Assembly (NCBI GenBank): GCA_031082155.1
Contig: JAVHLL010000001.1
Coordinates: 25,058 to 89,057 of the forward strand
Source of the DNA: Thermodesulfovibrionales bacterium
GTDB taxonomy: Bacteria > Nitrospirota > Thermodesulfovibrionia > Thermodesulfovibrionales > SM23-35
Direction of reading: 5' to 3'
DNA length: 64,000 nt
The notes below the pieces were generated by a model. That model made no database searches. It saw only the letters and a program-made list of their open reading frames with translations, and was not told where the DNA came from. Made by a program: the position numbers and the translations under genes. Numbering within the stretch: the stretch's first letter is position 1; every line of letters begins with the position of its first letter. Of this stretch, positions 21,121-57,239 are shown piece by piece.

Positions 21121-21855
21121 TTAAATGACGTTCCTCTCGAGTTCAAAGAATATCTGGAATCTGTTTGGGCGTTTCTTCGAAACGGAATAGGCAACGATCG
21201 TGTCCCCCGAATAGAACTCCTGAGTGAGGAGCAGCACAGGAAACCCATTCGCCCCGATGATTCCGCTTTGCTCTTCAGTAAGATAGGTGATGTCAATATA
21301 ATTCCTGACTCTGGTGACTCTTATCCCGTATTTTTTTTCGAAGAGTTCAAAGAGAGACCGGTGCTCGATGTCGTCTTCTAACAGGAGGGGACAGACATGA
21401 TAAGGGACATAGATTTCCTGAAGAATAACGGGTTCCTCCCGGACTTTCCAGAGTTTCTTGATGTAAATAAGATGCTTGTCAGGAGTGATGTCAAGCTTTA
21501 CGTCGAGGCCGTCGACAGGCATCATGACTGTCCTGACAAGGACCTCGGATGTGGGCTCTTCATCATAGTCGAGGAGCAGTTCTTTCATGCTCGCATGCAT
21601 GGGGAATCCTTCGGAGAAAGCATTCCTTTTAATGAAAGTCCCTTTTCCCTGCTGCCGTTTTAAATATCCCTGCCTGGTGAGTTCAAGCACGGCTGTTCTT
21701 ACTGTTGCCCTGCTGACATTGAAAATCTTGCAGAGCTCTCCTTCGGTTGGAATCTGGGAGCCCACCTGCCATTCATTGGTCTCGATCTTTTTCTTGATTA
21801 TTTCGTAGACCTGGAGATAAAGTTTCTGATGGTCTTCTCTGTCAATTAATTCCAT
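21121..21855 (-). CDS. GntR-family regulator with UTRA effector domain, paralog 1
   Basis: MELIDREDHQKLYLQVYEIIKKKIETNEWQVGSQIPTEGELCKIFNVSRATVRTAVLELTRQGYLKRQQGKGTF is a winged-HTH GntR domain. The C-terminal half is UTRA-like. RBS AAGAGGAAA. It is divergent from the SulP gene. Confidence 0.9.
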   Translation of the reverse strand: MELIDREDHQKLYLQVYEIIKKKIETNEWQVGSQIPTEGELCKIFNVSRATVRTAVLELTRQGYLKRQQGKGTFIKRNAFSEGFPMHASMKELLLDYDEEPTSEVLVRTVMMPVDGLDVKLDITPDKHLIYIKKLWKVREEPVILQEIYVPYHVCPLLLEDDIEHRSLFELFEKKYGIRVTRVRNYIDITYLTEEQSGIIGANGFPVLLLTQEFYSGDTIVAYSVSKKRPNRFQIFFELERNVI

Positions 21856-21900
21856 TTGATGTTTCCTCTTTGAGGTTAAAATTCAGGAGTTTCCATAAAA

Positions 21901-21920
21901 ATAATAAAGTTATTACAAAC
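21901..21920. promoter_or_regulatory. candidate GntR operator palindrome
   Basis: ATAATAA-AG-TTATTACAAAC. It matches 57254-57273 upstream of GntR paralog 4 at 17 of 20 positions, and the two sites share the exact 11-mer GTTATTACAAA. Confidence 0.35.
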
Positions 21921-22126
21921 CATTAAATATAATAATGATATGCTTTTATCTTGTCAATTGAATTATTATTATAGAGTTTTATATGACATTATATAAAAAA
22001 TACATTTCAACCAATTAATATTAAAGGATTTATTGAATTATTGGGTGTTATCGGAATAAGTGCAGGGTTTTCTGTTCATCTTTAATCTTCAGCAAGAAAA
22101 AAACCTTGCATAAAAATTAGATAATG

Positions 22127-22160
22127 ATGTTATAATTATTCGGTTTTATTCTTATAACAT
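22127..22160. promoter_or_regulatory. inverted repeat upstream of the SulP gene
   Basis: ATGTTATAA-N16-TTATAACAT, about 80-110 nt upstream of the SulP ATG, in a 382-bp very AT-rich divergent intergenic region. Confidence 0.3.
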
Positions 22161-22237
22161 TATTTCATTTAAATTTGTTTTCACCATTTTTTTGAATATG
22201 CAATATTATATATTGGATCAATAAAGGAGAGAAGATC

Positions 22238-24367
22238 ATGTTGCAACACGTGTTCCCTTTTCTGGAATGGCTGAAAGGCTACAGATTCGACAAATTAAAG
22301 GCTGACGGAATAGCAGGGTTGACTGTTGCGTTGGTCCTTATCCCTCAATCCATGGCGTATGCCCAACTGGCAGGATTGCCCTCCTATTATGGATTGTATG
22401 CAGCATTCCTCCCTCCCATGGTGGCTGCGTTATTCGGTTCCAGCAGGCAGCTTGCAACAGGTCCTGTTGCGGTTGTTTCTCTCATGACCTCGGCGTCTTT
22501 AAGCCCGCTTGCTACTCAGGGAAGCGAAAGCTATATTGGATACGCGATTCTGCTCGCCTTAATTGTGGGATTGTTTCAGTTTCTTTTAGGTGTCCTGAGA
22601 CTCGGCCTGGTCGTGAATTTTCTCTCTCACCCTGTTGTGAATGGCTTTACCAATGCTGCCGCCCTGATTATTGCCACTTCTCAATTGTCGAAGATGTTCG
22701 GAGTATCCGTTGATAATGCAGAGCATCATTACGAGACCATCATGCGGGTTATTCAGGCGGCAATACATTATACACACTGGCCGACGCTGATTATGGGCAT
22801 TGGTGCGTTTGCACTAATGTTCATATTGAAAAAGATTTCTCCCAAAATCCCCAATGTCCTTGTCGCGGTTGCGATCACCACAGTTATTTCATGGGCGATA
22901 GGATTCGAACACAATGCCACGGTTGATATCACAAGAATCGAGTCTCCAAAAGCAAAAGAACTCATCACAAACTTTAATAGAACCCAGGAAGAAATTTCAG
23001 CGCTCGCCAAACAACGGACAGAGATTACCAATCAACTCGAAACACTCAAGGGGAGCAAGGATAAAATACCGTTTCTCAATGTGAAATTGAATGAAGAAGT
23101 GATAAACACCCAACTGGAAGAGCGGAAAGCAACAGAGGTATCTCAGCGGAGCGAGATACGGGACCTGCTCTTCTCAGGGGTCAAGCAGCCCGACGGCTCC
23201 CTGACTTTTTATCTGAAGGATGAAGTACCCCAGAATGTAGTTACTGACGACAGCGTATGGCGCATCAGAGTCGGGAACAAACCGATAGATGAGAATTCCC
23301 TGCAGCTGAAAAGCGGCGGCGCTGTGGTCGGAAAAGTCCCTGAAGGACTTCCCTCTTTTACAATCCCGACCATAACGGTAAAAAGTATTCTCCATCTCCT
23401 GCCGTATGCGATAATTATTTCCCTGCTGGGGTTCATGGAAGCGATCTCGATTGCAAAAGCCCTTGCCGGAAAAACAGGACAGCGGCTGGACCCTAATCAG
23501 GAATTGATAGGCCAGGGGTTGGCGAATATGCTTGGTTCTGTCGGGAAAAGCTATCCGGTTTCCGGTTCTTTTTCCCGTTCGGCGGTCAATTTTCAGGCAG
23601 GAGGACTCACCGGGCTTTCGAGTGTGTTTACAAGCCTTGCGGTATTGATTGCGCTGTTGTTTTTTACCCCGCTGCTTTATCATCTCCCACAGTCTGTGTT
23701 GGCGGCAGTCATCATGATGGCGGTTATCGGCCTCCTGAATGTTTCGGGCTTCATCCATGCCTGGAAGGCGCAGAAGTACGACGGGATAATCTCCGTTATA
23801 TCGTTTGTTGCCACCTTAGTCTTTGCTCCTCACCTTGACAAGGGTATTATGATTGGCGTTGCGCTCTCTCTTTCGGTATTCTTATATAAGAGCATGAAGA
23901 CGAAAATATCCCTGTTGTCAAGGCATGAAGACAAATCGCTTCGCTGCATAGATACCCACGGTCTGCAGGAATGCGAGCATATCGCGGTGATGAGATTCGA
24001 AGGCCCGCTGTTCTTTGCGAATGCAAGTTATCTTGAAGACAGCGTCAGGGGGATTATGCTGACAAAAAAGAAATTGAAACATATTGTCCTCCTCGCAAAC
24101 GGCGTAAATGAGATGGATGCCTCGGGCGAGGAAACCTTGTCGCTGCTTGTAGACCGGGTCAGAAGCGCGGGGATGGATATATCCCTGGCAGAAGTGAATG
24201 AAGCGGTCCTGAAAGTTCTCAGACGGACCCATCTGCTGGAAAAGATCGGACAGGACCATGTCCATCCAACCCTTGACCAGGCAATAAGCAGTGTTTATTC
24301 TGTTGCCCATCGGGAAACGACTGAGCAGCAATGTCCTCTTATGGCTGTATGCAGGCTGGAGACTTAA
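22238..24367 (+). CDS. SulP-family anion transporter with STAS domain and a ~130-aa inserted soluble segment
   Basis: The N-terminus reads DGIAGLTVALVLIPQSMAYAQLAGLP..YGLY. The C-terminal STAS region reads VMRFEGPLFFANASYLED...DASGEETL. A charged, coiled-coil-like insert (ITRIESPKAKELITNF...SLQLKSGG) sits before the conserved VPEGLPSF segment. Confidence 0.88.
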   Translation: MLQHVFPFLEWLKGYRFDKLKADGIAGLTVALVLIPQSMAYAQLAGLPSYYGLYAAFLPPMVAALFGSSRQLATGPVAVVSLMTSASLSPLATQGSESYIGYAILLALIVGLFQFLLGVLRLGLVVNFLSHPVVNGFTNAAALIIATSQLSKMFGVSVDNAEHHYETIMRVIQAAIHYTHWPTLIMGIGAFALMFILKKISPKIPNVLVAVAITTVISWAIGFEHNATVDITRIESPKAKELITNFNRTQEEISALAKQRTEITNQLETLKGSKDKIPFLNVKLNEEVINTQLEERKATEVSQRSEIRDLLFSGVKQPDGSLTFYLKDEVPQNVVTDDSVWRIRVGNKPIDENSLQLKSGGAVVGKVPEGLPSFTIPTITVKSILHLLPYAIIISLLGFMEAISIAKALAGKTGQRLDPNQELIGQGLANMLGSVGKSYPVSGSFSRSAVNFQAGGLTGLSSVFTSLAVLIALLFFTPLLYHLPQSVLAAVIMMAVIGLLNVSGFIHAWKAQKYDGIISVISFVATLVFAPHLDKGIMIGVALSLSVFLYKSMKTKISLLSRHEDKSLRCIDTHGLQECEHIAVMRFEGPLFFANASYLEDSVRGIMLTKKKLKHIVLLANGVNEMDASGEETLSLLVDRVRSAGMDISLAEVNEAVLKVLRRTHLLEKIGQDHVHPTLDQAISSVYSVAHRETTEQQCPLMAVCRLET

Positions 24368-24386
24368 ATTTCATGGAGGGAGCAAA

Positions 24387-25613
24387 ATGTCAATTATAAC
24401 AGTATTTGCAGGGAACTACTGTAATGAAGAAACCGCAATAAAGGAAATTCTCAAGCAGACAAGCTACAGGCATCTGACTGACGCTGATATCATTGCAAAA
24501 GCGACCGGCCTGTCGAACCTTTCTGAAAGCAAAATAACCAGGGCTTTTTCAGCAAAGACGTCTGTTTTCAATCAATTCACCCATGAAAAAGAACGTGCCA
24601 TTACATATCTTAAACTTGCCACAGCAGAATTATTCGCGGAACATAAGGACAAAATTCTTCTTACAGGGTTTACAAGTATCCTGGTGCCGGCAACAATAAG
24701 GCATGCCTTGAGAATTTGCCTTATCGCGGATATGAAGCACAGGGTTTCCGTAGCGTCTTCTTCAGGAATGTCCGAAAGTGAAGCGCTCAAACTTATCCAT
24801 AAGGGCGATGAAGAAAGAATGCTCTGGACACAAAGCGTTCTGGAGAAAGACGATCCCTGGGATGCCTCGATTTACGACATGGTATTGCCTTCCGATAAGA
24901 TGTCGTTTACGGAAATAGCAGATTTAGTAGGAAAGACTTTAGGCAAAGATATCCTGAAAGCTTCGCGTGCCAGTGAAAAATCAATCGAAGATTTTCTCCT
25001 GGCAGCGAGGGTTGGAACCGCATTGGCGAAAGAAGGACACTTTATCACCGCAGAGGCGGATGCGGGTGCAGTCACTCTCACAATCAATAAACATGTGCTG
25101 CTGTTACAGCGTCTTGAGGAAGAACTCCGGGCATTAGCTGTCAAGGTCCCTGGGGTAAAGTCAGTTTCAACAAAAGTAGGCAAGAAATTCTATCAGGCTG
25201 ATGTGTACAGAAAGTACGACCTTGAAAATCCTTCTAAACTGCTTCTTGTTGATGATGAGCGACAGTTTGTACAGACGTTGTCCGACAGATTACGCTTGCG
25301 GGAGATTGGTTCTGTCGTTGCATATGACGGTGAAAGCGCCCTCGATTTAATCAAGGAAGAAGAGCCCGATGTCATGATTCTGGACCTGAAAATGCCGGGG
25401 ATTGACGGCCTTGAGGTCCTGAAACGGGTAAAACAGACAAGCCCGAATATCGAAGTCATTATCCTCACCGGACAGGGCTCGGAGGCAGACAGAAAATTAT
25501 GTATGGAACTGGGGGCTTTTGCGTATCTCGAAAAACCGGTAGATGTGAATCTGCTCAGCGAGACCATTAAGAAAGCCAACGAAAAAATAAGGCAAAGCAG
25601 GGAGAATACCTAA
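24387..25613 (+). CDS. cytidylate-kinase-like (degenerate P-loop) + BON-like + receiver (REC) fusion protein
   Basis: The start is moved to ATG 24387 (RBS GGAGGGAG). The N-terminal ~200 aa follow the Cytidylate_kin2-like pattern, but the P-loop reads FAGNYCNEE. The middle has a BON-like GAVTLTINKH...VPGVKSVSTKV segment. The C-terminus is a REC domain (LLLVDDE...VMILDLKMPGIDG...YLEKP). Confidence 0.75.
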   Translation: MSIITVFAGNYCNEETAIKEILKQTSYRHLTDADIIAKATGLSNLSESKITRAFSAKTSVFNQFTHEKERAITYLKLATAELFAEHKDKILLTGFTSILVPATIRHALRICLIADMKHRVSVASSSGMSESEALKLIHKGDEERMLWTQSVLEKDDPWDASIYDMVLPSDKMSFTEIADLVGKTLGKDILKASRASEKSIEDFLLAARVGTALAKEGHFITAEADAGAVTLTINKHVLLLQRLEEELRALAVKVPGVKSVSTKVGKKFYQADVYRKYDLENPSKLLLVDDERQFVQTLSDRLRLREIGSVVAYDGESALDLIKEEEPDVMILDLKMPGIDGLEVLKRVKQTSPNIEVIILTGQGSEADRKLCMELGAFAYLEKPVDVNLLSETIKKANEKIRQSRENT

Positions 25614-25928
25614 CCCTAAAGATTATTCATCGCGGACGCTGTTCTCATTGGAATAAATCCCCTTTGGAAAAGGGGGACGGAGGGGGTTTAAGGAAAAATA
25701 ATGCTGCTTTTTATTTATGAAATCTCCCCGCTTCCCACCGTGCCAAAGAGGAGCCGTCCATCCCGGAAAAATCACCTCTGCAGGGATACCAATTATGCTG
25801 ATGCTCGTGCAGAGGGGAATTCCCTTTCATGTTGTATAAGGCTTCAATTGCTTTCTCCCCTCCACAACGAATAGAATGAAAGAATAGGACGATATTACCG
25901 ATACTCAGCGGATTTTAGTCATGATTCC

Positions 25929-28235: not shown

Positions 28236-28246
28236 GGAGGATCATT

Positions 28247-34424: not shown

Positions 34425-35939
34425 TTACTTAAGCGTTATTGGCATTCCCAGCATCGGCCAGAATGTTACTATCGCAAAGCCGATGATTGCCACAAGCACC
34501 ACACTCAACAATAAGCCATGTCTAAAAAATTCACCCGGTGTAAACTGTTTTGATTCATAGGCAATCGCGTTCGGTGCAGCGCCGATCAGAAGCACAAAAG
34601 GCATACCTGCAGTAATCAGGGATGAGTAGAAAATTACATCAGGGGCTACACCCAGATATGGTGCGATAACCAGCGAAACAGGCAACGAGATCGCTATCGC
34701 AGCTACGTTCATAATAAAGTTCGTCATAATCAGGACAAAGGTTGCGATGCTGAGAACGAATACAAGCCAATGGGCGTTCTGGAACATGACAAGCCACTGA
34801 ACTGCCATCCACTGCGCAGCTCCCGTCTGCCAGAGGCAGAAACCGATACTCATTGCGCCGCTGAAAAGAAGGATGATATTCCAGGGAATATCTTCAAGTT
34901 CTTTTACAGTCAGCACCTTGAATATAAAGAAAAGAAGCGTTGATACGAGCATTATTGCTGCCCTGTCCAACGACTTTAACGCAGGAACAAAGGACTGCAT
35001 TGACATTACCGCGATAGCGCCTAACACCGTAATGATGACGAATTTTTCATCCCTTGTCATAGGCCCGAGTTCCTTGGAGAGTTTCGTGACTCTTTCCCTG
35101 AGTCCGGGGATGACACTCTTTTCAGGCTTCAGAAACATCATGAGGTATATCCAGATCAGAAATACCATGATCCAACCAATCAAAAAAGAGAATTTTGTAA
35201 GCTCAAAGAAACCTACTGTCTTGCCGGTAAATTCTGCAAACATTCCGGCGCCTGCTGCAGCCCTTGCAGAACCGAGGAAGGTAATAACGCTTCCGGCTCC
35301 GGCAGCATAAGCCATGCCGATGAACAATGACTTGCCGAATTTTGTAGGTTTATCTCCTTCACCATAGAGAGCATTGATAGCAAGCAATATCGGAAATACT
35401 GTGGCTGCGGCAGCGGTATGCGCCATGACATGTGCAAGACCGGCTGTAACCACCAGCGCTCCCAGCATGATCATGCTTGTTTTTTCGCCCACGATCTGGA
35501 GCATCTTGTATGCGAGCCGCTTTGTAAGCCCTGATTTTGTAAAGGCAAGCCCTACAACAACCGATGCGAAAATGAACATGACGGACGGGTCCATAAAGTC
35601 TTTAAAGGCATCTTTTGCAGGGCGTATTGCAAAGAGAGCCTGAAAGACGCCGATTGCAATCGCAGTGACGCCGATAGGAACAACCTCAAATATCCACCAG
35701 GTGGAAGCCAGTATGAAAAGCGCTATAGATCCTTTTCCCTGCGGTGACAGGACAAAATGCTTGCCTCCCGGGTCAACCGCGTCAGGCCAAGGGGGCATAA
35801 AATAGATCCACAAAAAGAGGCCTAATCCAATAAGGATAAACATAACCCGTTTCCAGTCAAATTTGTCTTTGGTTTCTGCAAGAACAATTTCAGGCGGTGG
35901 TTGGGGTAACCCCTCTGATTGTTTTTTCTGATCAGCCAT
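34425..35939 (-). CDS. DASS/SLC13-like anion permease (IT superfamily), copy A
   Basis: 504 aa, polytopic. GMAYAAGAGSVITFLGS and LLIGAAPNAIAYES are hairpin-type motifs. It is about 80 percent identical to copy B by eye. Confidence 0.85.
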   Translation of the reverse strand: MADQKKQSEGLPQPPPEIVLAETKDKFDWKRVMFILIGLGLFLWIYFMPPWPDAVDPGGKHFVLSPQGKGSIALFILASTWWIFEVVPIGVTAIAIGVFQALFAIRPAKDAFKDFMDPSVMFIFASVVVGLAFTKSGLTKRLAYKMLQIVGEKTSMIMLGALVVTAGLAHVMAHTAAAATVFPILLAINALYGEGDKPTKFGKSLFIGMAYAAGAGSVITFLGSARAAAGAGMFAEFTGKTVGFFELTKFSFLIGWIMVFLIWIYLMMFLKPEKSVIPGLRERVTKLSKELGPMTRDEKFVIITVLGAIAVMSMQSFVPALKSLDRAAIMLVSTLLFFIFKVLTVKELEDIPWNIILLFSGAMSIGFCLWQTGAAQWMAVQWLVMFQNAHWLVFVLSIATFVLIMTNFIMNVAAIAISLPVSLVIAPYLGVAPDVIFYSSLITAGMPFVLLIGAAPNAIAYESKQFTPGEFFRHGLLLSVVLVAIIGFAIVTFWPMLGMPITLK

Positions 35940-37184
35940 AATATTGCCTCCTTATTCCTTGATAAGTGAATCGGAAATTTCATCAAAGACTTCGATCATC
36001 CGTACGAGACCGACGAACTTCTTCTTGTTCTCTAAAACCGGCAGGAGAACAAGGTCGTGATGCACCATCAGATATGCCGCTTTGGTTACCGGATCGGCCG
36101 GATCAACAAACTGTTTTGCAGGGGCCATTATCTCGCTGACCGGCTTCTCCGCAAGCTCTTTCGACTGTTTGGTGAAAAGCGTATCCCAGATTAAAGAGAG
36201 TTCAGATTCCTGTTCCTTGTATCCCTGAGCCTTTTCTGAACCCTGCATAAACCTTGGTTCCAGCCCTCTGAGGATATCCTTCAGGGTAAGGGTCCCCATG
36301 AGGTTGTACTTTTCGTCGAACACCAGTATCGCCATCGGCTCAGGGTACTTCTTCGAGCTGATAAACGACACCTTGATAATCCTTACCGCCTGGTTGATCG
36401 TAAACCAGTAAGGGATGTGGGGATACTCAAAAATACCGATCATTACATCTTTCACAAGTTTTCCGTCTGCCATAACACCCTCCTTTTTATGCAACCTTTC
36501 TTTCGAATTCCATGAAAATTCTGAACCTGTCCGATTTCTTCACCGACTGCATGTACATGATCAGGGTATCTCCCGAATAAAATTGCTGGGTGAGCAGAGA
36601 AGCGGGAGCGCCTTCGGGGAGGTTCAGCAAACGAGCCTCATCTGTTTTCAGATGGGTAAGCTCGATAAAATTCTTTACCCTGGTAATTTTTATGCCGTAT
36701 TTTTTTTCGAAGAGATCAAAAAGGGAACGGGTTTCGATGTCGTCTTCCAGGAGGAGAGGGCAGAGATGGTAGGGGATATAGCATTCCTGTACCATAACCG
36801 GCTCATCCTGGACGGACCAGAGTCTTTTGATATAGATGACATGCTTTTCAGGGGATATGTCGAGAAGAGTATCAAGGCCATTCAACGGCATCATGACAGT
36901 TCTGGCAAGGACCTGCGGGGAAAAGGGGATCCCCTCTTCGAAGCACAGTTCTCTGAGATGCGCCTGCATATTCAGCCCTTCAGCTTGAGAGGTCCTGGAG
37001 ATGAAAGTTCCTTTTCCCTGCTGACGCTTCAGGTACCCCTGCCTGACAAGCTCCATAACGGCTGTTCTTACGGTGACCCTGCTGACATTAAATGTTTTGC
37101 AAAGCTCTTCTTCCGTTGGAATTTGTGCGCCTAACACCCATTCGCTCTTCTCGATTTTATTCTTGAAAATTTCGTACAACTGGT
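35782..37184. repeat. 1403-bp perfect direct repeat, copy 1
   Basis: It appears identical to 40927-42329 (offset 5145). All six-frame ORFs inside are identical between copies, and spot-checked nucleotide lines match. Identity drops abruptly at both edges: G versus A at 35781/40926, and G versus A at 37185/42330. Confidence 0.9.
35952..36473 (-). CDS. CBS-pair domain protein (173 aa), copy A
   Basis: Two CBS motifs. The start is set at MADGKLVKDV (RBS AAGGAGG 5 nt upstream), by analogy with the paralog at 56485. Confidence 0.85.
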   Translation of the reverse strand: MADGKLVKDVMIGIFEYPHIPYWFTINQAVRIIKVSFISSKKYPEPMAILVFDEKYNLMGTLTLKDILRGLEPRFMQGSEKAQGYKEQESELSLIWDTLFTKQSKELAEKPVSEIMAPAKQFVDPADPVTKAAYLMVHHDLVLLPVLENKKKFVGLVRMIEVFDEISDSLIKE

Positions 37185-37224
37185 GATACAGCTTATGATG
37201 ATCTTCCCTGTCTATTAATTCCAT
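36487..37224 (-). CDS. GntR/UTRA regulator, paralog 2 (copy A)
   Basis: (M)MELIDREDHHKLYHQLYEIFKNKIEKSEWVLGAQIPTEEELCKTFNVSRVTVRTAVMELVRQGYLKRQQGKGTF. An alternative start lies one codon upstream at 37227. Confidence 0.9.
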   Translation of the reverse strand: MELIDREDHHKLYHQLYEIFKNKIEKSEWVLGAQIPTEEELCKTFNVSRVTVRTAVMELVRQGYLKRQQGKGTFISRTSQAEGLNMQAHLRELCFEEGIPFSPQVLARTVMMPLNGLDTLLDISPEKHVIYIKRLWSVQDEPVMVQECYIPYHLCPLLLEDDIETRSLFDLFEKKYGIKITRVKNFIELTHLKTDEARLLNLPEGAPASLLTQQFYSGDTLIMYMQSVKKSDRFRIFMEFERKVA

Positions 37225-37304
37225 CATTGGTATGTCCTGATAATATAAAGTTAAGTGGTCAAAATGTTTCTACAAACTTATCTTAATTCCACTGGCGAAT
37301 GTGA

Positions 37305-37352
37305 TTCAATCGGCTAAAGCCTGTATTTTACTCGGGTAGATGCTGTATTTTG
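37305..37352. promoter_or_regulatory. tandem 22-bp direct repeat upstream of GntR copy A
   Basis: TTCAATCGGCTAAAGCCTGTATTTTACTCGGGTAGATGCTGTATTTTG. It aligns with 42446-42494 at roughly three quarters of positions, inside otherwise diverged flanking DNA. Confidence 0.3.
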
Positions 37353-39569: not shown

Positions 39570-41084
39570 TTATTTCAGTAATATCGGCATCCCTAATATT
39601 GGCCATACCGTGAACAGTGCGATCCCGAGTACAACGATCAGAATAATGCTCAGGGGGATACCGTGCATAAAAAATTCACCTGTGCTGAACTGTTTAGACT
39701 CATAGGCAATCGCATTCGGAGCCGCGCCGATAAGGAGGATGAAAGGCATGCCCGCTGTCACGAGAGAAGCATACAGAATTACGTCAGGTGCTACACCGAG
39801 ATACCCGGCGACAACAAGAGAAACAGGTAATGCAATGGCAATTGCTGCCACGTTCATGATGAAATTCGTCATAATCAGGACAAAGGTTGCGATGCTCAAA
39901 ACAAATACGAACCAAGGGGCGTTCTGGAACATGACCAGCCAGTTAACCGCCATCCACTGGGCAGCGCCTGTCTTCCAGAGACAGAAGCCGATGCTCATTG
40001 CGCCGCTGAAAAGGAGGATGATATTCCAGGGGATATCTTCCAGTTCTTTCACTGTCAAAACTTTGAATATGAAGAACAGGAGCGTCGAAACGAGCATGAT
40101 CGAGGCCCTGTCCAACGACTTTAACGCAGGAACAAAGGACTGCATTGACATGACGACCACTACACCGAGAACACAAATGATTACAAACTTTTCGTTAAAT
40201 GAAAGAGGGCCCAGTTCACTGGATAATCTTTTTACCTTCTCCCTTAATCCTGTGATAACCTTTTTCTCTGCTTTCATGAATATCATGAGATAGCCCCATA
40301 TAATAAAGACCATAATCCAACCGATGAGGAACATATATTTGGTGAGTTCAAAAAAGCCGATATCCCTTCCGGTAAATTCCTTGAACATACCTGCTGCTGC
40401 CGGTCCACGCGCAGCTCCGAGAAACGTGATGATGCTCCCGGCTCCGGCGGCATACGCCATGCCGATAAAAAGAGATTTGCCGAATTTAGTCTGTTTATCA
40501 CCTTCCCCGTAAAGGGCATAGACTGCAAGCAGAATAGGGAAGACAGTGGCTGCCGCAGCCGTGTGTGCCATTAAGTGTGAGAGTCCGGCGGTTACCACAA
40601 GACAGCCCAACAGGATCATGCTCGTTCTCTCTCCGACTACTTCAAGCATTTTATAGGCAAGCCGCTTTGTGAGCCCTGATTTTGTGAATGCCAGCCCTAC
40701 GACTACAGAGCCGAAGATGAACATGACGGACGGGTCCATAAAATCTCTGAACGCATCTTTGGCCGTCCTGATTGCAAACAGTGCCTGAAAAACCCCGATA
40801 GCAAGGGATGTAACGCCAATTGGCAGAACTTCAAACACCCACCAGGTGCCGGCAAGCAAGAACAGTGCAATGGCTCCTTTCCCTTCCTTCGAGAGGGGGA
40901 ATGCTTTGCCTGTGGGGTCTAATGCATCAGGCCAAGGGGGCATAAAATAGATCCACAAAAAGAGGCCTAATCCAATAAGGATAAACATAACCCGTTTCCA
41001 GTCAAATTTGTCTTTGGTTTCTGCAAGAACAATTTCAGGCGGTGGTTGGGGTAACCCCTCTGATTGTTTTTTCTGATCAGCCAT
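39570..41084 (-). CDS. DASS/SLC13-like anion permease, copy B
   Basis: 504 aa. The first 54 aa are identical to copy A (inside the perfect repeat). The remainder is diverged. Confidence 0.85.
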   Translation of the reverse strand: MADQKKQSEGLPQPPPEIVLAETKDKFDWKRVMFILIGLGLFLWIYFMPPWPDALDPTGKAFPLSKEGKGAIALFLLAGTWWVFEVLPIGVTSLAIGVFQALFAIRTAKDAFRDFMDPSVMFIFGSVVVGLAFTKSGLTKRLAYKMLEVVGERTSMILLGCLVVTAGLSHLMAHTAAAATVFPILLAVYALYGEGDKQTKFGKSLFIGMAYAAGAGSIITFLGAARGPAAAGMFKEFTGRDIGFFELTKYMFLIGWIMVFIIWGYLMIFMKAEKKVITGLREKVKRLSSELGPLSFNEKFVIICVLGVVVVMSMQSFVPALKSLDRASIMLVSTLLFFIFKVLTVKELEDIPWNIILLFSGAMSIGFCLWKTGAAQWMAVNWLVMFQNAPWFVFVLSIATFVLIMTNFIMNVAAIAIALPVSLVVAGYLGVAPDVILYASLVTAGMPFILLIGAAPNAIAYESKQFSTGEFFMHGIPLSIILIVVLGIALFTVWPILGMPILLK

Positions 41085-42329
41085 AATATTGCCTCCTTAT
41101 TCCTTGATAAGTGAATCGGAAATTTCATCAAAGACTTCGATCATCCGTACGAGACCGACGAACTTCTTCTTGTTCTCTAAAACCGGCAGGAGAACAAGGT
41201 CGTGATGCACCATCAGATATGCCGCTTTGGTTACCGGATCGGCCGGATCAACAAACTGTTTTGCAGGGGCCATTATCTCGCTGACCGGCTTCTCCGCAAG
41301 CTCTTTCGACTGTTTGGTGAAAAGCGTATCCCAGATTAAAGAGAGTTCAGATTCCTGTTCCTTGTATCCCTGAGCCTTTTCTGAACCCTGCATAAACCTT
41401 GGTTCCAGCCCTCTGAGGATATCCTTCAGGGTAAGGGTCCCCATGAGGTTGTACTTTTCGTCGAACACCAGTATCGCCATCGGCTCAGGGTACTTCTTCG
41501 AGCTGATAAACGACACCTTGATAATCCTTACCGCCTGGTTGATCGTAAACCAGTAAGGGATGTGGGGATACTCAAAAATACCGATCATTACATCTTTCAC
41601 AAGTTTTCCGTCTGCCATAACACCCTCCTTTTTATGCAACCTTTCTTTCGAATTCCATGAAAATTCTGAACCTGTCCGATTTCTTCACCGACTGCATGTA
41701 CATGATCAGGGTATCTCCCGAATAAAATTGCTGGGTGAGCAGAGAAGCGGGAGCGCCTTCGGGGAGGTTCAGCAAACGAGCCTCATCTGTTTTCAGATGG
41801 GTAAGCTCGATAAAATTCTTTACCCTGGTAATTTTTATGCCGTATTTTTTTTCGAAGAGATCAAAAAGGGAACGGGTTTCGATGTCGTCTTCCAGGAGGA
41901 GAGGGCAGAGATGGTAGGGGATATAGCATTCCTGTACCATAACCGGCTCATCCTGGACGGACCAGAGTCTTTTGATATAGATGACATGCTTTTCAGGGGA
42001 TATGTCGAGAAGAGTATCAAGGCCATTCAACGGCATCATGACAGTTCTGGCAAGGACCTGCGGGGAAAAGGGGATCCCCTCTTCGAAGCACAGTTCTCTG
42101 AGATGCGCCTGCATATTCAGCCCTTCAGCTTGAGAGGTCCTGGAGATGAAAGTTCCTTTTCCCTGCTGACGCTTCAGGTACCCCTGCCTGACAAGCTCCA
42201 TAACGGCTGTTCTTACGGTGACCCTGCTGACATTAAATGTTTTGCAAAGCTCTTCTTCCGTTGGAATTTGTGCGCCTAACACCCATTCGCTCTTCTCGAT
42301 TTTATTCTTGAAAATTTCGTACAACTGGT
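40927..42329. repeat. 1403-bp perfect direct repeat, copy 2
   Basis: See copy 1 at 35782-37184. Confidence 0.9.
41097..41618 (-). CDS. CBS-pair domain protein (173 aa), copy B (identical to copy A)
   Basis: The translated ORF is identical to 35952-36494. Confidence 0.85.
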   Translation of the reverse strand: MADGKLVKDVMIGIFEYPHIPYWFTINQAVRIIKVSFISSKKYPEPMAILVFDEKYNLMGTLTLKDILRGLEPRFMQGSEKAQGYKEQESELSLIWDTLFTKQSKELAEKPVSEIMAPAKQFVDPADPVTKAAYLMVHHDLVLLPVLENKKKFVGLVRMIEVFDEISDSLIKE

Positions 42330-42369
42330 AATATAATTTTTGGTGGTCTTCCCTATCGATAAGTTCCAT
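41632..42369 (-). CDS. GntR/UTRA regulator, paralog 3 (copy B)
   Basis: MELIDREDHQKLYYQLYEIF... It is identical to copy A from about residue 15 onward. The start is set at MELID (42369) rather than the tracked 42390. Confidence 0.9.
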   Translation of the reverse strand: MELIDREDHQKLYYQLYEIFKNKIEKSEWVLGAQIPTEEELCKTFNVSRVTVRTAVMELVRQGYLKRQQGKGTFISRTSQAEGLNMQAHLRELCFEEGIPFSPQVLARTVMMPLNGLDTLLDISPEKHVIYIKRLWSVQDEPVMVQECYIPYHLCPLLLEDDIETRSLFDLFEKKYGIKITRVKNFIELTHLKTDEARLLNLPEGAPASLLTQQFYSGDTLIMYMQSVKKSDRFRIFMEFERKVA

Positions 42370-42371
42370 AA

Positions 42372-42389
42372 TATTACTATGTAATAACA
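42372..42389. promoter_or_regulatory. AT-rich palindrome abutting the GntR copy B start
   Basis: TATTAC-TAT-GTAATAACA. It contains the 10-mer TGTAATAACA, which is the reverse complement of TGTTATTACA in the 57254 palindrome. Confidence 0.25.
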
Positions 42390-42445
42390 ATATAATAAAT
42401 AATCGTTACAACAATATGCTATAGTATTTCAAGGACCCGATATGT

Positions 42446-42494
42446 TTCAATCGGGTACATACTGTATTTATATCGGGTATTTACTGTATATTTG
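42446..42494. promoter_or_regulatory. tandem 22-bp direct repeat upstream of GntR copy B
   Basis: TCGGGTACATACTGTATTTA at 42451-42470 and TCGGGTATTTACTGTATATT at 42473-42492. An overlapping dyad CCCGAT-N8-ATCGGG lies at 42436-42455. Confidence 0.3.
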
Positions 42495-47202: not shown

Positions 47203-47832
47203 TTACTTTTCCAGGATGCCTGTTTTTATTGCATACCTTACAAGGTCGGCGGTTGTATGGACGTCGAGTTTTTGCATGATATTCGTCCGGTGGGTTTCCA
47301 CAGTTTTAACGCTAATAAACAGTTGACTGGCAATCTGTTTATTGGTGAACCCGGATGCGATGAGCTTTAATACTTCGCGTTCGCGGGTGGTGAGCGCATG
47401 GGCCTCTTTCCCCTCTTCAGAGGAAGCTTTCATCAGCCTCTCGGAAACCGAAGGGCTGATAAAGGTCCAGCCTGCGGAGACGGCTTTGACCGCATAGAGC
47501 AGATCCTCAAAGGCGTTGTCCTTGAGAACGTAACCGGATGCTTTCAGTTGCAGCGCCCTCCTGGCAGTGAGGGTCTCGTTATGCATGGTGAGGAAAATAA
47601 CCTTTGTGGGGATTCCCGTGCTCTGAATCTTCTGGAGGATCTCGAAGCCGTCAAGCCCCGGCATCGATATGTCGAGAATGGCGATATCTGGTTTCTCCCT
47701 GAGAATGAGATCAAGGGTTTCCGTCCCTCCACCCGCTTCTCCGATGACCGACAGGTCCGGTGCGGATTTCAGCAGATTCAGGAGCCCCTGTCTGAATATG
47801 ACATGATCGTCTGCGATAATAACCCTGGTCAT
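47203..47832 (-). CDS. NarL/LuxR-family response regulator
   Basis: REC (VIIADDH...IAILDISMPGLDG) plus a LuxR HTH (LTTREREVLKLIASGFTNKQIASQLFISVKTVETHR). Confidence 0.92.
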   Translation of the reverse strand: MTRVIIADDHVIFRQGLLNLLKSAPDLSVIGEAGGGTETLDLILREKPDIAILDISMPGLDGFEILQKIQSTGIPTKVIFLTMHNETLTARRALQLKASGYVLKDNAFEDLLYAVKAVSAGWTFISPSVSERLMKASSEEGKEAHALTTREREVLKLIASGFTNKQIASQLFISVKTVETHRTNIMQKLDVHTTADLVRYAIKTGILEK

Positions 47833-49676
47833 TTGAGTGGCACCTCGATAAAGATATTTGTCCCTATTTTATCAGAACTCTTTATCCTAATTATACCGCC
47901 GAGCAATTCGACCCTCTCTCTTATTGTATACAGTCCTAACCCATGGTCTTCTGTTTCGGGGCTGATGCGGGCGAAGCCCCTCCCGTTGTCCCGGATCTCC
48001 AAAGTAAGAAAATGTGCATCCTGTTTTAGGAGCACATCGACGATAGTTGCTTCCGAATGTTTCACTGCATTGTTCAGCGCCTCCTGAAATATCCGGTAGA
48101 AGTTTTCCTTGATCTTCGGACTCATATCGATTGTTTCTCCTGCGGTAATATTAATCTCAATCCCGGAACGTTCCTGTACTTTCCGCGCATGCCAGGTGAT
48201 GGCCTCTACAAGGCCCGTATTTTCGAGGAAAGAGGGTCTGAGATCCATGGACACCGCCCGCAGTTCGTCAATGACCTGGGTTATCTCCGATATGAGTTCG
48301 GGGAAAGCCTTTCTGTCAACCGGCATGCCGTCCTTTACCTGTGCTTCGAGCAATTGCAGTTTCAATTTTGTTGCAAGCAGTGAAGTACCGATGCCGTCAT
48401 GAAGTCCTCTCGCGAGCCTCTTCCGCTCTTTTTCATGGGCATCGAATATTTTTACCGAAGCAGACTGCAGTTCCCTGATCCTCGTGTAACGGGAGGTGAG
48501 CGCATACACCACGCAGATCATGAAAAAGGCGGTTGCATAGTCCCAGAGGAAAAACCCCGTAATCTGGAGCAGATCGAACCCTCCAAACGATTCAAGCACG
48601 AATCCCACAATCAGGCCCGTGATTCCGAGCAGGATGGTGCCTGATTCATAGAATTTCCTGACAAAGGCCTTGATCGCAATAAAAACCAGGAACGAAGCGG
48701 TCACGAGGAAAAGCACTTTCCAGAAGGTATAGATATAGATCCTCGCGGTATAGGAAGTGAAAAAGAGGGTGAGCGCCGCTATGCAGAAGAATGCCGCGGG
48801 AATCGCCCGTATGGGAGCTTTAAATTTTTCCTTGTAGAAGTGAAGAAGGAGCAGGAGCAGGCTTGCGGGGAGGAGCGCGGAAATTATGTTGATTGCCTTC
48901 TGTATGGTCCGGGTCTTCATCCCGGTATCATAGAATGTGACGCTCCCGAGAAAGAAAAGCGTACCATAGAGTGTTATGAAGAGCCAGAAATAAAAATATT
49001 CCCTGTCCCTCAGTCCCTTGATATAGAAGAAAAGACAGGCAAGGAAGAACAAGGAGAAGAAGGTAAAAAAACAGAATTCCCATATCAGGGTATTCTTGTA
49101 TTTTTGCAGCTTCACGATCAGAAGGTCCTTATATCCGCCGATATGTATCCCCCGGTCAAAAATACCCCCATTGAGATAGGTATTCATCACGCGGACGGCA
49201 AGGACGTTGTCTCCCCCGTAGTTGATATGCTCACGGGGAATATTGTAAAGCCTGTTGATTTTTGATGCTTCAATAAACGGTTCACCGATCAGGCCTTCTC
49301 CTCCAATCTTCATGCCGTTGAAAAAGACTTCGTCAGCGTCGCCGATTCTTCCGAGGAAGACCGCGGCCTGGACATTTTTGAAGCTCTCGGGAACAGTGCA
49401 ATGGATCCTGTACCATCCTATCCCGTTTGCCGCACGGATTCCCTGGGACTGCCAGCTCCCGGGGATGGCAATCTGTTCCCACCGGGAATCGTCATATGAA
49501 GGAGATGCATAGACGGAGTTGTCATCAGGGGAAAATTTATGGATGCCATCAAGCACTAGGGTGAAATCATTAGGTTCTGCCTGGAGGGGACAATCAAAGA
49601 AAAGAATACTCATGAACAAAAAAACCAGGATTATCCTTTTCACTGTTCCTGCAATCATATAATTACCATTCTTCAC
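47829..49676 (-). CDS. 7TM-DISM-type sensor histidine kinase (HisKA_3 class)
   Basis: Signal peptide, then an extracytoplasmic beta-sandwich-like domain (GWYRIHCTVP...FLGRIGDADEVFFNG) and about 7 TM helices. The H-box is LARGLHDGIGTSL. HATPase is present (NAVKHS, DNGRGF, GLGLYTIRERV). The gene overlaps the RR gene by 4 nt. Confidence 0.85.
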   Translation of the reverse strand: MKNGNYMIAGTVKRIILVFLFMSILFFDCPLQAEPNDFTLVLDGIHKFSPDDNSVYASPSYDDSRWEQIAIPGSWQSQGIRAANGIGWYRIHCTVPESFKNVQAAVFLGRIGDADEVFFNGMKIGGEGLIGEPFIEASKINRLYNIPREHINYGGDNVLAVRVMNTYLNGGIFDRGIHIGGYKDLLIVKLQKYKNTLIWEFCFFTFFSLFFLACLFFYIKGLRDREYFYFWLFITLYGTLFFLGSVTFYDTGMKTRTIQKAINIISALLPASLLLLLLHFYKEKFKAPIRAIPAAFFCIAALTLFFTSYTARIYIYTFWKVLFLVTASFLVFIAIKAFVRKFYESGTILLGITGLIVGFVLESFGGFDLLQITGFFLWDYATAFFMICVVYALTSRYTRIRELQSASVKIFDAHEKERKRLARGLHDGIGTSLLATKLKLQLLEAQVKDGMPVDRKAFPELISEITQVIDELRAVSMDLRPSFLENTGLVEAITWHARKVQERSGIEINITAGETIDMSPKIKENFYRIFQEALNNAVKHSEATIVDVLLKQDAHFLTLEIRDNGRGFARISPETEDHGLGLYTIRERVELLGGIIRIKSSDKIGTNIFIEVPLK

Positions 49677-54825: not shown

Positions 54826-54998
54826 CGTTTTTCCTCCAGTAAAGGGTGAATGCCGTTCAGAGGAATAATGACCCCGTCAGGGGGTTTTTTCAGTTCATGC
54901 CCGATTTTATAGATCGCTTCTCCCATCCGATATCAGATTTCGCGTCCCTTTCTGTAACCTTTCTCTTGGTTAACCTTTACTCTTTTTATCGCAGTGCG

Positions 54999-55715
54999 TT
55001 ATTGAATCTTGAGCACCTTTTTCTTCGACTTCAGGACTATGTATGACTTGTCCGGAACAATATAATTGCCGTCCGGGGCATGCACCTGAATCCCGGTAAT
55101 CATGGCATAATCACTCTTTGAGGTATCCACCACTTTTCCGATGGCATGTTCAAGGTCTTCCTGGATAACTTTGCGGGTTATCTGCGTGAGTTCAAGAAGA
55201 CTCGGGATGTCGCCATAGGTTATTTCCTTGATCAGTCTCCTTTTCAGAAGGCTCTCCTCTATGTCTTCTTCATCAATCTTAATATGGAGCTTGCCGGTGT
55301 AGAGTTCATCAAGGAACAGACAGAGCGCTCCGCAGGCGCTTGAGGCCTCCTTGATCCCCTTCCGCTTGCAGAATCCGGTCTTGCCGCCCTCATCGACCGC
55401 GATATGGGGGATGACATAGAACACATACCGTTCCCTCTTACCCACTCTCGGGGCATGATGAATTGCCGCCATCAGCCCTGTCTTGCCTGCGGTGAACATG
55501 CCGGCAAGGCTCGAAAAATTAAACGCTTCTCCCCATTTGCGTTTTATATGACTGCGGAGCGACTGGGAAATTTCATCCCTGCATACACACACAGAGGCAA
55601 GCGAGTTCTCTGCGGAAAACCCAAATTTCTCTAACGCAGCATACGTCTTCTGGATAAAATTCTGTTCGGTAAAAAATACGCTGAAATACTGTTTGATGAC
55701 GTGGTCAGGTGCCAT
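54999..55715 (-). CDS. conserved hypothetical; possible LCIB-like beta-carbonic-anhydrase-fold protein
   Basis: 238 aa from ATG 55715 (RBS GGAGG). It has a CRDE motif, then His 58 residues later and Cys 23 residues after that (VCVCRDE...VIPHIAVDEGG...SSACGALC). This resembles the Cys-His-Cys zinc site of LCIB-family proteins as I recall them. Not verified. Confidence 0.4.
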   Translation of the reverse strand: MAPDHVIKQYFSVFFTEQNFIQKTYAALEKFGFSAENSLASVCVCRDEISQSLRSHIKRKWGEAFNFSSLAGMFTAGKTGLMAAIHHAPRVGKRERYVFYVIPHIAVDEGGKTGFCKRKGIKEASSACGALCLFLDELYTGKLHIKIDEEDIEESLLKRRLIKEITYGDIPSLLELTQITRKVIQEDLEHAIGKVVDTSKSDYAMITGIQVHAPDGNYIVPDKSYIVLKSKKKVLKIQ

Positions 55716-55963
55716 AGATCCTCCATAAAAAATTAGGTATAGTTCAGGAAAAGGCACAGGGACGGGGAAACTCCTCAGCCCCTGTGCTTCCCCCCATCTC
55801 GTTGTATAACTGCTGCGCTTTCTGTCTCAATCCGGGAATATTCTTTTTCTCCGTCTTGAACCATATTAGCATAAATCTCCAGAGAAGAAATGTTCGGCAA
55901 TGACTTTTCGGGTGGTGGCTACAGTGACCCTTCCGGTTTCTTTTTATCTGCCATATGAACCTG

Positions 55964-56485
55964 CTATTCCCGCGTGATTGCGTTGGATATTTCATCGAAG
56001 ACCTCAACCATGCGGACAAGACCGACGAACTTCTTCTTGTTCTCAAGTACAGGCAGCAAAACGAGATTATGGTGGATCATGAGAAATGCCGCCTTGGTCA
56101 CCGGGTCGTTGGGATCGGCAAAATATTTTGCAGGAGACATTACCTCGCTCACCGGTTTCTCTGCAAGTTCCTTCGATTTCTTTGTGAACAGGGAATCCCA
56201 GATGAATGCCAGCCCCCTCTCGTCCTCTTCAGGTACCTGGGCTTTTGTGGTGGCGTGCATGAACCTCGGTTCAAGTCCCTTCAGGAGATCTTTGAGCGTA
56301 AGGGTTCCCATAAGATTATATTTCTCGTCAAATACGAGAATTGCCAGAGGTTCCGGGTAGTTTCTGGTGCTGATGAAAGAGATCTTGATAATCCTCACCG
56401 CCTGGTTGATTGAAAACCAGTAGGGGATATGAGGGTACTCGAAAATGCCGGTCATCAAATCTTTTACGAGTTTGCCGTCTGACAT
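55964..56485 (-). CDS. CBS-pair domain protein (173 aa), type 1, third copy
   Basis: MSDGKLVKDLMTGIFEYPHIPYWFSINQAVRIIKISFIS... It is clearly paralogous to 35952 and 41097. RBS AAGGAGGG. Confidence 0.85.
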   Translation of the reverse strand: MSDGKLVKDLMTGIFEYPHIPYWFSINQAVRIIKISFISTRNYPEPLAILVFDEKYNLMGTLTLKDLLKGLEPRFMHATTKAQVPEEDERGLAFIWDSLFTKKSKELAEKPVSEVMSPAKYFADPNDPVTKAAFLMIHHNLVLLPVLENKKKFVGLVRMVEVFDEISNAITRE

Positions 56486-56501
56486 AAACCCTCCTTAATT
56501 T

Positions 56502-57239
56502 CTATACGACTTTTCTTTCGAGTTCCACTGAAAAATGGAATCTGTCCGGCCTTTTCACTGACCGCGCATACATGATCGTGGTTTCGCCGGAATAAAAGTG
56601 CTGGATCAGCAATATCGCCGGTGAACCTTCCTCCAATCCGAAAACCCTGGCTTCATCTGCGCTTAGGCGGGTGATATCCATGAAGTTTTTTGCCTGTGTT
56701 ATCTTTATTCCGTACTTCTTGTCGAAAATCTCGAAGAGTGAATGATTCTCAATGTCATCTTCTAAAAGGAGAGGGCAGATATGATAAGGGATATAATTTT
56801 CCTGGAGCAATACCGGTTCATCCTGAACGGTCCATATCCTTCTTATATAGATGATATGTTTGTCATGAGTGATATCGAGCCTTTGATCCAGGTCATCAAC
56901 AGGCATCATGACAGTTCTGGCCAACACCCTTGGTGCGATTTCAATCCCTTCTTCCAGGAGAAGTTCCTTCAGGCTGGTCTGCATATTCAACCCTTCGGAA
57001 ATGATGTTTTTATTTACAAAGGTGCCTTTTCCCTGCTGGCGTTTCAGGTACCCCTGCCTGACAAGTTCAAGAATCGCTGTTCTGACTGTGGCTCTGCTGA
57101 CACCAAACATCCTGCAGAGCTCGTCTTCAGTAGGGATCTGTGCTCCGACTTGCCATTCACTGCTCTCGATTTTTTTTCTCAGAATTTCGTAGAGCTGAAA
57201 GTAAAGTTTTTGATGATCTTCTCTGTCGATTAGTTCCAT
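56502..57239 (-). CDS. GntR/UTRA regulator, paralog 4
   Basis: MELIDREDHQKLYFQLYEILRKKIESSEWQVGAQIPTEDELCRMFGVSRATVRTAILELVRQGYLKRQQGKGTF. It is divergent from the PEP-utilising enzyme gene. Confidence 0.9.
   Translation of the reverse strand: MELIDREDHQKLYFQLYEILRKKIESSEWQVGAQIPTEDELCRMFGVSRATVRTAILELVRQGYLKRQQGKGTFVNKNIISEGLNMQTSLKELLLEEGIEIAPRVLARTVMMPVDDLDQRLDITHDKHIIYIRRIWTVQDEPVLLQENYIPYHICPLLLEDDIENHSLFEIFDKKYGIKITQAKNFMDITRLSADEARVFGLEEGSPAILLIQHFYSGETTIMYARSVKRPDRFHFSVELERKVV

Follow-up and report, generated by a model that had tools for sequence, protein, structure and literature searches.

Question raised by the locus

The 64,000-nucleotide stretch of DNA analyzed here (the window: contig JAVHLL010000001.1 of assembly GCA_031082155.1, positions 25,058 to 89,057), from a Thermodesulfovibrionales bacterium of the phylum Nitrospirota, carries four paralogous GntR/UTRA regulator genes, each heading or facing genes for transport or carbon metabolism, and it raises the question of whether these regulators run four separate circuits or one. 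A preliminary description of the locus had proposed a small-molecule-responsive regulon expanded by duplication, with each copy wired to a different output. The expansion of a single HutC-type subfamily by duplication stood up to our analysis, as did the presence of an effector domain; the separate outputs did not, and whole cassettes had been copied before the lineage of the window. We favor with moderate confidence, on the basis of sequence comparisons, that the four proteins are autorepressors with a common operator and a common anionic effector, and with probable cross-talk, instead of four independent circuits.

Four copies of one HutC-type regulator

The four genes lie on the reverse strand at 21121..21855 (copy 1, type G1), 36487..37224 (copy 2, G2), 41632..42369 (copy 3, G3) and 56502..57239 (copy 4, type G4). 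Both the open reading frames and the protein alignment agree with the positions, the MELIDREDH start and the near-invariant winged helix-turn-helix (wHTH) domain that had been attributed to them. The ATG of copy 3 at 42369 was backed by homology, and for copy 2 starts at 37227 and 37224 are both possible. The proteins align end to end; copies 2, 3 and 4 are 62–64% identical to copy 1, and copies 2 and 3 are about 99% identical to each other, with two residues different. At the DNA level the genes form four-copy repeat families of 71–75% identity, a repetition that far exceeds chance.

Every copy matched both Pfam GntR (PF00392; E 1e-17 to 1e-19, 61–70 bits against a gathering cut-off of 27) and Pfam UTRA (PF07702; E 2e-22 to 7e-30, 80–104 bits against a cut-off of 23.8). 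The nearest solved structures in the PDB were NagR (YvoA) and DasR. An AlphaFold2 model of copy 4 (pLDDT 86.5) resembled full-length YvoA/NagR, DasR, YydK and PhnF in structure comparison, and its UTRA part matched isolated UTRA domains with TM values of 0.75–0.91 and rmsd values of 1.4–2.2 Å, so that the C-terminal halves did model as UTRA, as had been predicted. By architecture and fold, the four genes belong to the HutC subfamily of the GntR superfamily. Named equivalogs were tried and rejected, since HutC, TreR, PhnF, PhnR and Rv0792c all scored far under the NCBIfam cut-offs (e.g., 129 against 269 bits and 113 against 212 bits). Homologs of the subfamily numbered 885 at E ≤ 1e-20, and the sole name given to the best 120 of them was "GntR family transcriptional regulator." A further feature of the UTRA domain is the set H128, H153 and C155 (numbering of copy 4; motif PYHxCPLLLEDD), which does not vary across 30 subfamily members and is missing in ordinary HutC outgroups; a metal or redox role is possible for it.

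A common predicted operator downstream of the promoters

De novo motif discovery by expectation maximization (EM; 558 seeds) in 19 non-redundant 200-nt regions upstream of gntR converged on one 16-bp palindrome, with the consensus GTAATAAC-GTTATTAC and 13 bits, which lies 19–61 nt upstream of the gntR ATG; in nearly all gntR genes it follows shortly after the promoter. When the window was scanned with the position weight matrix (PWM), four sites reached 13 bits or more, and each of them lay in an intergenic region upstream of a gntR gene (21901–21916, 22121–22136, 42381–42396 and 57254–57269), with 0.2 expected from composition-preserving shuffles; a simple palindrome pattern search of the window gave six matches against 1.6 expected. 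Across the related loci described below (292.5 kb; loci are cited by number as L001 and so on), 22 of 22 matches of at least 12 bits fell upstream of gntR, including those in the untrained loci L001, L002, L019, L020 and L025, and L026 had a single palindrome match, at −27.

The top-scoring site of the window is the predicted operator of copy 4, the near-perfect palindrome GTAATAAT-GTTATTAC (57254..57269; no mismatches, 19.5 bits), which is kept in L007, L008 and L013 together with a second, weaker palindrome, AAAATAATATTATTTT (57270..57285; 7 bits). The predicted operator of copy 1, O1, is GTAATAACTTTATTAT (21901..21916; PWM 15.8 bits, one mismatch in the pattern search) and is also present in L001 and L002, and that of copy 3 is GTAATAACAATATAAT (42381..42396; PWM 15.3 bits). 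Copy 2 has a weak operator-like site, GTAGAAACATTTTGAC (37258..37273; 9.4 bits), with a similar site in its ortholog L021. Two other operator-like sites, outside the PWM training set, are located near the SulP gene that faces copy 1 (22121–22136, 13.5 bits, and 22151–22166, 9.3 bits), and comparable ones were found in L002 and L003. The operator consensus of HutC members is GT-N-TA-N-AC, to which the palindrome is no literal fit.

The promoters appear to be of two kinds, sigma-70-like for copies 1 and 4 and of a response-regulator-box type for copies 2 and 3. Copy 1 has a predicted sigma-70-type promoter on the reverse strand, TTGACA-17-TATTAT (21929..21957; 11 of 12 consensus positions), and its predicted operator covers positions 13–28 after the −10. 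Upstream of copy 4, back-to-back promoters share a −35 region (57292..57342), with TTGACA-17-TACCAT for gntR on the reverse strand and TTGTCA-17-TATAAT for a divergent dikinase gene on the forward strand; this architecture is kept in about 12 loci, and the predicted operator of copy 4 begins 22 nt after the −10. No sigma-70-like promoter was found in the upstream region of copy 2. Tandem ATACAG-N5-TACCCGA boxes, 22 bp apart and on the reverse strand, are located upstream of copy 2 (37310..37348) and of copy 3 (42421..42489; boxes 42489–42473 and 42467–42451), where they abut a weak TTGAAA −35. The same boxes are present in every locus that has a histidine kinase/LuxR pair before gntR (they were seen in L006, L011, L012, L016, L021 and L025), so they are candidate sites of the adjacent LuxR/NarL-type regulator.

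Residues predicted to contact the operator and the effector

The wHTH domains are 78–80% identical between paralogs, against 55–63% for the UTRA domains. Residue contacts described for NagR (PMC4333415) were transferred via a phmmer alignment onto all homologs. Arg48 and Gly69, which make base and wing contacts in NagR, are invariant in the subfamily. At the ligand-contact positions, T90 and R133 of NagR each correspond to K/R in the subfamily, R135 to W (R in sister genera), E145 to Q, S165-I-Y167 to S-L-F, R211 to Q, E222 to M/A and Y228 to K. The aligned residues K/R91, K/R134, W136, Q146, S167-L-F169, Q213 and K229 are the same in the four paralogs, and the pocket positions are essentially uniform across the subfamily and different in ordinary HutC outgroups. 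By this alignment, the anion clamp is retained and more basic, and the acidic sugar-binding residues are gone.

The paralogs hardly differ in recognition helix, wing, operators or pocket residues, so that the effector would be a small anion, the same or a very similar one for all copies, and the paralogs are likely to recognize one another's operators. A shared predicted operator and nearly uniform pocket positions also speak against four genes each wired to a different output, as had been proposed.

An ancestral cassette duplicated as a unit

Species-representative genomes were scanned with the paralog alignment, which yielded 25 loci, nearly all of them in Thermodesulfovibrionales/Nitrospirota metagenome-assembled genomes (MAGs) and up to 96% identical; several relatives have two or three gntR copies per MAG. 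When the window proteins were mapped onto the 25 loci by tblastn, a recurrent unit was recognized in about 15–20 related loci, in the order gntR, 173-aa CBS-pair protein, DASS transporter and LCIB-type carbonic anhydrase. The cassette is either divergent from one or two PEP-synthase-like dikinase genes (context A: L005, L007–L010, L013–L015, L018 and L022) or lies immediately behind the genes for a 7TMR-DISM histidine kinase and a LuxR-type response regulator (context B: L006, L011, L012, L016 and L025). In a third type (L001–L003), a lone gntR is divergent from SulP, which is followed by a cytidylate-kinase-like/receiver fusion and then by a PAS kinase; these orthologs of copy 1 are 89–96% identical and their context is unchanged. 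DASS is an optional component of the cassette, because L026 and L027 have a gntR-CBS-LCIB operon without it, beside one or two dikinase genes. A second module, of a CBS-pair and a CitMHS gene, often lies 3′ of the gntR-CBS-DASS-LCIB unit.

The preliminary description had suggested an alignment, a phylogeny and a comparison of pocket residues as a check, of which the pocket positions are reported above; a neighbor-joining tree placed the window copies in three orthogroups, G1, G4 (orthologs L007, L008, L013 and L005) and G2/3. As each orthogroup has orthologs in other MAGs, the cassette duplications are older than this genome. Taken at the sequence level, these comparisons point to an ancestral cassette of gntR, CBS, an optional DASS and an LCIB-type carbonic anhydrase, which was duplicated as whole units.

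Two observations concern the later history of such cassettes. In L012 and L015, which belong to one MAG (CAVZMO), the context-A and context-B GntR copies cluster together in the tree and not by context, which hints that concerted evolution between cassettes may be recurrent, beyond the case of the window described below. DASS proteins are 90–93% identical across MAGs (L010–L012, L014, L015 and L018 compared with the window DASS) while the adjoining GntR proteins are only 60–72% identical, which speaks for unusually strong constraint on DASS or, alternatively, for a transporter gene that has been laterally exchanged or converted.

Decay and probable gene conversion within the window

Cassette 4 is collinear with L007, at 92% DNA identity, from the dikinase gene through gntR and CBS to about 70 nt into DASS. 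The DASS gene of L007 is intact; in cassette 4, blastn against L007, L008 and L013 revealed DASS remnants on the reverse strand at 55791..55963, namely the 5′ end and a 103-nt internal piece. The LCIB sequences of cassette 4 and L007 are 67% identical in DNA and 44% in protein. Because of this collinearity, the DASS remnants and the diverged LCIB, the arrangement of CBS plus LCIB in cassette 4 is best read as a DASS-deleted, rearranged form of the common cassette, and the different output assigned earlier to copy 4 corresponds to a decayed version of it.

Cassettes 2 and 3 are both without LCIB, which by comparison with the related loci is a loss from the ancestral cassette. They share a tract of 1403 bp that is 100% identical (35782..37184 and 40927..42329) and takes in the 5′ end of DASS, the CBS gene in full and gntR from its codon 14 onward. 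The sequence flanking this tract is 72–74% identical, and the regions upstream of the two gntR genes are unrelated. The closest relative, L021, has two tandem cassettes that are 77.6% identical and lack an identical tract. The 1403-bp tract probably arose when one of these cassettes recently converted the other. Homogenized over this tract, copies 2 and 3 have the same output and not a different one each. A mobile-element origin of the copies was considered and rejected, as gene annotation of the region from 18.5 to 60.4 kb gave no transposase or integrase domains. Flanking cassette 3 there is, in addition, an inverted duplication of the CBS-pair and CitMHS module (37592–39448 and 44031–45883, 71–75% identity), which indicates an inversion relative to the collinear order in L012 and L015.

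Proposed model and the case for diverged regulators

In the model that we propose, each gntR would be the first gene of its own operon and would probably repress that operon, with a GntR dimer binding the AT-rich palindrome just downstream of the −10 and a small anionic ligand in the UTRA pocket relieving repression. The ancestral operon would have consisted of gntR, the CBS-pair gene, an optional DASS gene and the gene of an LCIB-type carbonic anhydrase. Its ancient duplication as a whole cassette would have given rise to G1 (facing SulP), G4 (divergent from the dikinase gene) and G2/3 (behind NarL/LuxR-type boxes), and later divergence would have involved the loss of DASS from cassette 4, the loss of LCIB from cassettes 2 and 3, and the recent conversion between the latter. 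Together, the copies would form a single set of local autoregulatory loops that regulate one another, in which the promoter input differs but the signal does not.

Several points weigh against this model. The position of the base-contacting R38 of NagR is occupied by G in G1, E in G2 and G3 and D in G4, differences that could reflect a tuning of operator preference. The pocket mapping is a sequence alignment to NagR at 27% identity, made without inspection of coordinates. Many of the palindrome sites belong to the PWM training set, those in L001, L002, L019, L020, L025 and L026 and near SulP being the independent ones. Copy 2 combines a weak operator-like site with the lack of a sigma-70-like promoter. 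As regards the substrate, the SulP protein fits a generic subfamily model only and DASS is without the dicarboxylate SNT motifs, as detailed below. Finally, the 1403-bp identical tract could be an assembly artefact.

The different residues at the R38 position speak for four regulators that have diverged in function, each with its own small molecule and its own output (SulP, DASS, DASS and carbonic anhydrase/dikinase, respectively), and this reading is also favored by the modest identity of the UTRA halves, by the variable near-pocket positions 89 (S/H), 223 (A/M) and 225 (S/M/A), and by the different promoter classes. However, copies 2 and 3 amount to a single protein with a single output, the paralogs have the core pocket positions and the operator consensus in common, and the differing outputs of cassettes 4 and 2/3 stem from recent losses from one cassette type. 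Given this, we consider four functionally diverged regulators unlikely.

Neighboring genes and the possible transported anion

The neighbors named in the preliminary description were all recovered. Divergent from copy 1 is the gene of a SulP-family permease with a STAS domain (22238..24367, forward strand; Pfam Sulfate_transp and STAS). It passes the NCBIfam model TIGR00815 (sulP), and the BicA and DauA models fell far below their cut-offs (BicA, 139 against 880 bits). CBS-pair proteins (Pfam CBS) are encoded on the reverse strand after copy 2 (35952..36473; 173 aa from the conserved ATG, 77% identical to the CBS protein of copy 4), copy 3 (41097..41618; identical to that of copy 2) and copy 4 (55964..56485). 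In cassettes 2 and 3 they are followed, also on the reverse strand, by the DASS transporters a (34425..35939) and b (39570..41084), whose genes are about 74% identical in DNA outside the identical tract. Both DASS proteins (family 2.A.47) matched Pfam Na_sulph_symp with 150–156 bits against a cut-off of 27, and TIGR00785 with 175 bits, under its cut-off of 198.6. Their best PDB match, VcINDY, is distant (E 1e-26), and a dicarboxylate substrate is doubtful because the two SNT motifs of VcINDY are replaced in the alignment by AHT and MNV.

After the CBS gene of copy 4, an LCIB-type beta-carbonic-anhydrase-like protein is encoded on the reverse strand (54999..55757; Pfam LCIB_C_CA, PF18599, E 1e-53, 182 bits against 25). 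In alignment to CrLCIC and CrLCIB it keeps the Cys (CRDE), His (PHIA) and Cys (ACGAL) motifs, whose Cys, His and Cys residues bind zinc in LCIB-type enzymes. The Arg that follows the first of these Cys residues, in CRDE, is found as well in LCIB and LCIC of Chlamydomonas. The PDB holds a structure of the S47R mutant of PtLCIB4, a substitution that lowers activity. From its sequence, the catalytic competence of the window protein is uncertain.

Divergent from copy 4 is the gene of a PEP-synthase-like dikinase (57349..59928, forward strand), with an ATP-grasp domain, a phosphohistidine domain and a C-terminal domain of about 300 aa; it matched Pfam PPDK_N and PEP-utilizers. The length of its homologs (849–857 aa) favors the ATG at 57349, a conserved codon that sits 6 nt after the TATAAT −10, so the transcript is probably leaderless. 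Likeness to PEP synthase extends over residues 137–595 (NF005057, 395 against 598 bits). The C-terminal 300 aa or so gave no Pfam match at E ≤ 1 and a best E of 0.5 in the PDB profile search, and a PEP/pyruvate-binding domain was not recognized by either search. A full PEP synthase (pyruvate, water dikinase) was rejected as the identity of this protein, as the third, C-terminal PEP/pyruvate-binding domain was not found. An AlphaFold2 model built from a 26-sequence alignment had a mean pLDDT of 59.8, with values below 50 over residues 436–743. The C-terminal region is highly conserved (e.g., the motif FKGGGA...DRRLRR), and the dikinase gene is duplicated in tandem in some relatives.

Since a carbonic anhydrase is embedded in anion-transporter operons, the handling of bicarbonate or sulfate is our favored hypothesis, and the cassettes would serve to take up or exchange an inorganic anion (bicarbonate, sulfate or both), a process coupled to the interconversion of CO2 and HCO3−. 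An alternative is the uptake of organic di- or tricarboxylates or of pyruvate for gluconeogenesis or anaplerosis, with DASS as the importer, the PEP-synthase-like enzyme as the source of PEP and the carbonic anhydrase as a supplier of HCO3− for carboxylation. Dicarboxylate transport is what DASS proteins are chiefly known for, and VcINDY is their best PDB match here, the dikinase does resemble PEP synthase over part of its length, and a carbonic anhydrase is present in the operon; nevertheless, both carboxylate-binding SNT motifs are replaced, the dikinase has no recognizable PEP/pyruvate-binding domain and DASS is dispensable in some cassettes, which leaves this proposal a small chance of being right. 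At the speculative end of the inorganic-anion hypothesis, and itself improbable as a whole, is an undescribed inorganic-carbon/anion-exchange module of anaerobic Nitrospirota, made up of CBS, a non-canonical DASS and LCIB beside a dikinase with a new C-terminal domain. It could import bicarbonate or, with HCO3− from the carbonic anhydrase as the driving force, exchange sulfate and bicarbonate, and the multi-copy HutC-type repressors would sense the transported oxyanion or a close metabolite via the unusually basic UTRA pocket.

In another reading, the GntR proteins would not be ligand-controlled repressors by themselves: the CBS-pair protein could instead be the real sensor, of adenosine nucleotides, S-adenosylmethionine or similar, and act on the regulator or the transporter, or else the GntR proteins could be activators. 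The CBS gene starts 13–16 nt after gntR in essentially every locus of the G2/3 and G4 types, including those without DASS, CBS proteins (75–90%) are better conserved than the regulators, and copy 2 lacks a recognizable sigma-70 promoter. Against this reading, regulators of the G1 type have no CBS partner yet have the same pocket residues, and the predicted operator lies downstream of the −10, as is typical of repression. In addition, CBS proteins of a second subfamily are encoded before CitMHS transporters where there is no gntR, which favors CBS as a transporter subunit. We judge this reading to be quite improbable.

That copies 2 and 3 represent one biological locus instead of two, the tract being an assembly or polishing artefact in a genome with three paralogs, is very unlikely: the perfect identity over 1403 bp inside units that otherwise diverge and the MAG origin of the related genomes do speak for it, as MAG assemblies can mis-join or cross-polish repeats, but the flanks differ clearly (both the DASS genes and the unrelated upstream regions), L021 likewise has two tandem cassettes, and a sharp-edged identical tract within diverged paralogous sequence is a classic signature of gene conversion.

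Other genes of the window lie around these cassettes. The pair of a 7TMR-DISM histidine kinase and a LuxR/NarL-type response regulator, which in related genomes is directly upstream of cassettes of the G2/G3 type, was found on the reverse strand at 47203..49676, with the LuxR-type regulator at 47203–47832. Downstream of SulP, the region 24291–30700 contains a cytidylate-kinase-like/receiver fusion, a PAS histidine kinase and four stand-alone receiver-domain genes (on both strands), and the first three genes of this region are syntenic with SulP in L001 and L003; a dCache kinase gene (30713–32431) lies 3′ of the receiver-gene cluster. An nhaA-I RNA (Rfam; 43909–43968, forward strand; 41.6 bits against a gathering cut-off of 37) is located directly upstream of the CBS-pair and CitMHS genes at 44001–45882. 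According to a published report, RNAs of this class are riboswitches of cation transporters and sense Li+ (PMC9646797). No riboswitch was found by Rfam at E ≤ 10 before the paralogous CBS-CitMHS pair at 37593–39448. The CBS-CitMHS modules seem to be riboswitch-controlled cation transporters outside the GntR circuit.

Comparison with known systems

NagR (YvoA) of B. subtilis and DasR of S. coelicolor (PDB 2WV0, 4U0V, 4WWC and 4ZS8) share with the window copies the two-domain architecture and fold, the conserved Arg48 and Gly69, the geometry of the anion clamp (a basic residue on strand betaE2 and Ser165 at a helix N-terminus) and a 16-bp palindromic operator near the promoter, predicted in our case. 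They differ in that the window copies are just 27–28% identical to them, that Arg38 is not conserved and the sugar-binding E145, E222 and Y228 have become Q, M/A and K, that the predicted operator is the AT-rich palindrome and not a dre site, and that the presumed targets are CBS/DASS/carbonic-anhydrase or SulP genes and not amino-sugar genes. Amino-sugar sensing of the NagR/DasR type was rejected as a candidate function, as R38, E145, E222, Y228 and R135 are replaced and only R133 (as K/R) and S165 are retained. With HutC, PhnF, TreR, the FarR-like PRK11402 and Rv0792c, the window copies have a general family resemblance (E 1e-28 to 1e-37).

In cyanobacteria, inorganic carbon is taken up, as part of the CO2-concentrating mechanism, by BicA, of the SulP family, and by SbtA with its nucleotide-binding partner SbtB. 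The pairing of an anion transporter with a small nucleotide-binding regulatory protein, and the occurrence of a SulP member and a carbonic-anhydrase-type protein in one regulated neighborhood, recall the arrangement in the window. In contrast to these modules, the window has DASS, a CBS pair that is not PII-like and a HutC-type instead of a LysR-type regulator, and its host belongs to an anaerobic Nitrospirota lineage; moreover, with the BicA score given above for the window SulP, bicarbonate transport is conjectural here. The LCIB-type protein resembles LCIB/LCIC of Chlamydomonas and PtLCIB4 (PDB 5B5X, 5K5W and 5B5Y), with E 2e-39 to CrLCIC and shared Cys/His/Cys motifs. It differs from them in being bacterial, cytoplasmic and operon-encoded; it carries the algal CRDE motif and is a putative enzyme.

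In a published survey of sulfate reducers, the one Nitrospirae genome, that of Thermodesulfovibrio yellowstonii, was recorded with neither a SulP nor a DASS candidate (PMC5840216). Our literature search found no description of bacterial LCIB cassettes or of GntR control of sulfate transporters in sulfate reducers.

Significance

There is nothing unusual in paralogous, autoregulated HutC repressors at the head of operons for transporters. The novelty lies in the subfamily, which in this analysis was seen only in Nitrospirota (Thermodesulfovibrionales), in its predicted operator and in its association with a CBS-DASS-LCIB cassette in these anaerobes. For annotation, the apparently different outputs in the window are to be read as products of recent decay and gene conversion and not as regulatory innovation. 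An uncharacterized regulator subfamily gains a concrete model that includes a predicted operator sequence, classes of promoters and candidate residues for the pocket, and a conserved CBS-DASS-LCIB cassette is flagged in the Thermodesulfovibrionales, whose systems for the uptake of anions (sulfate/bicarbonate) are poorly known.

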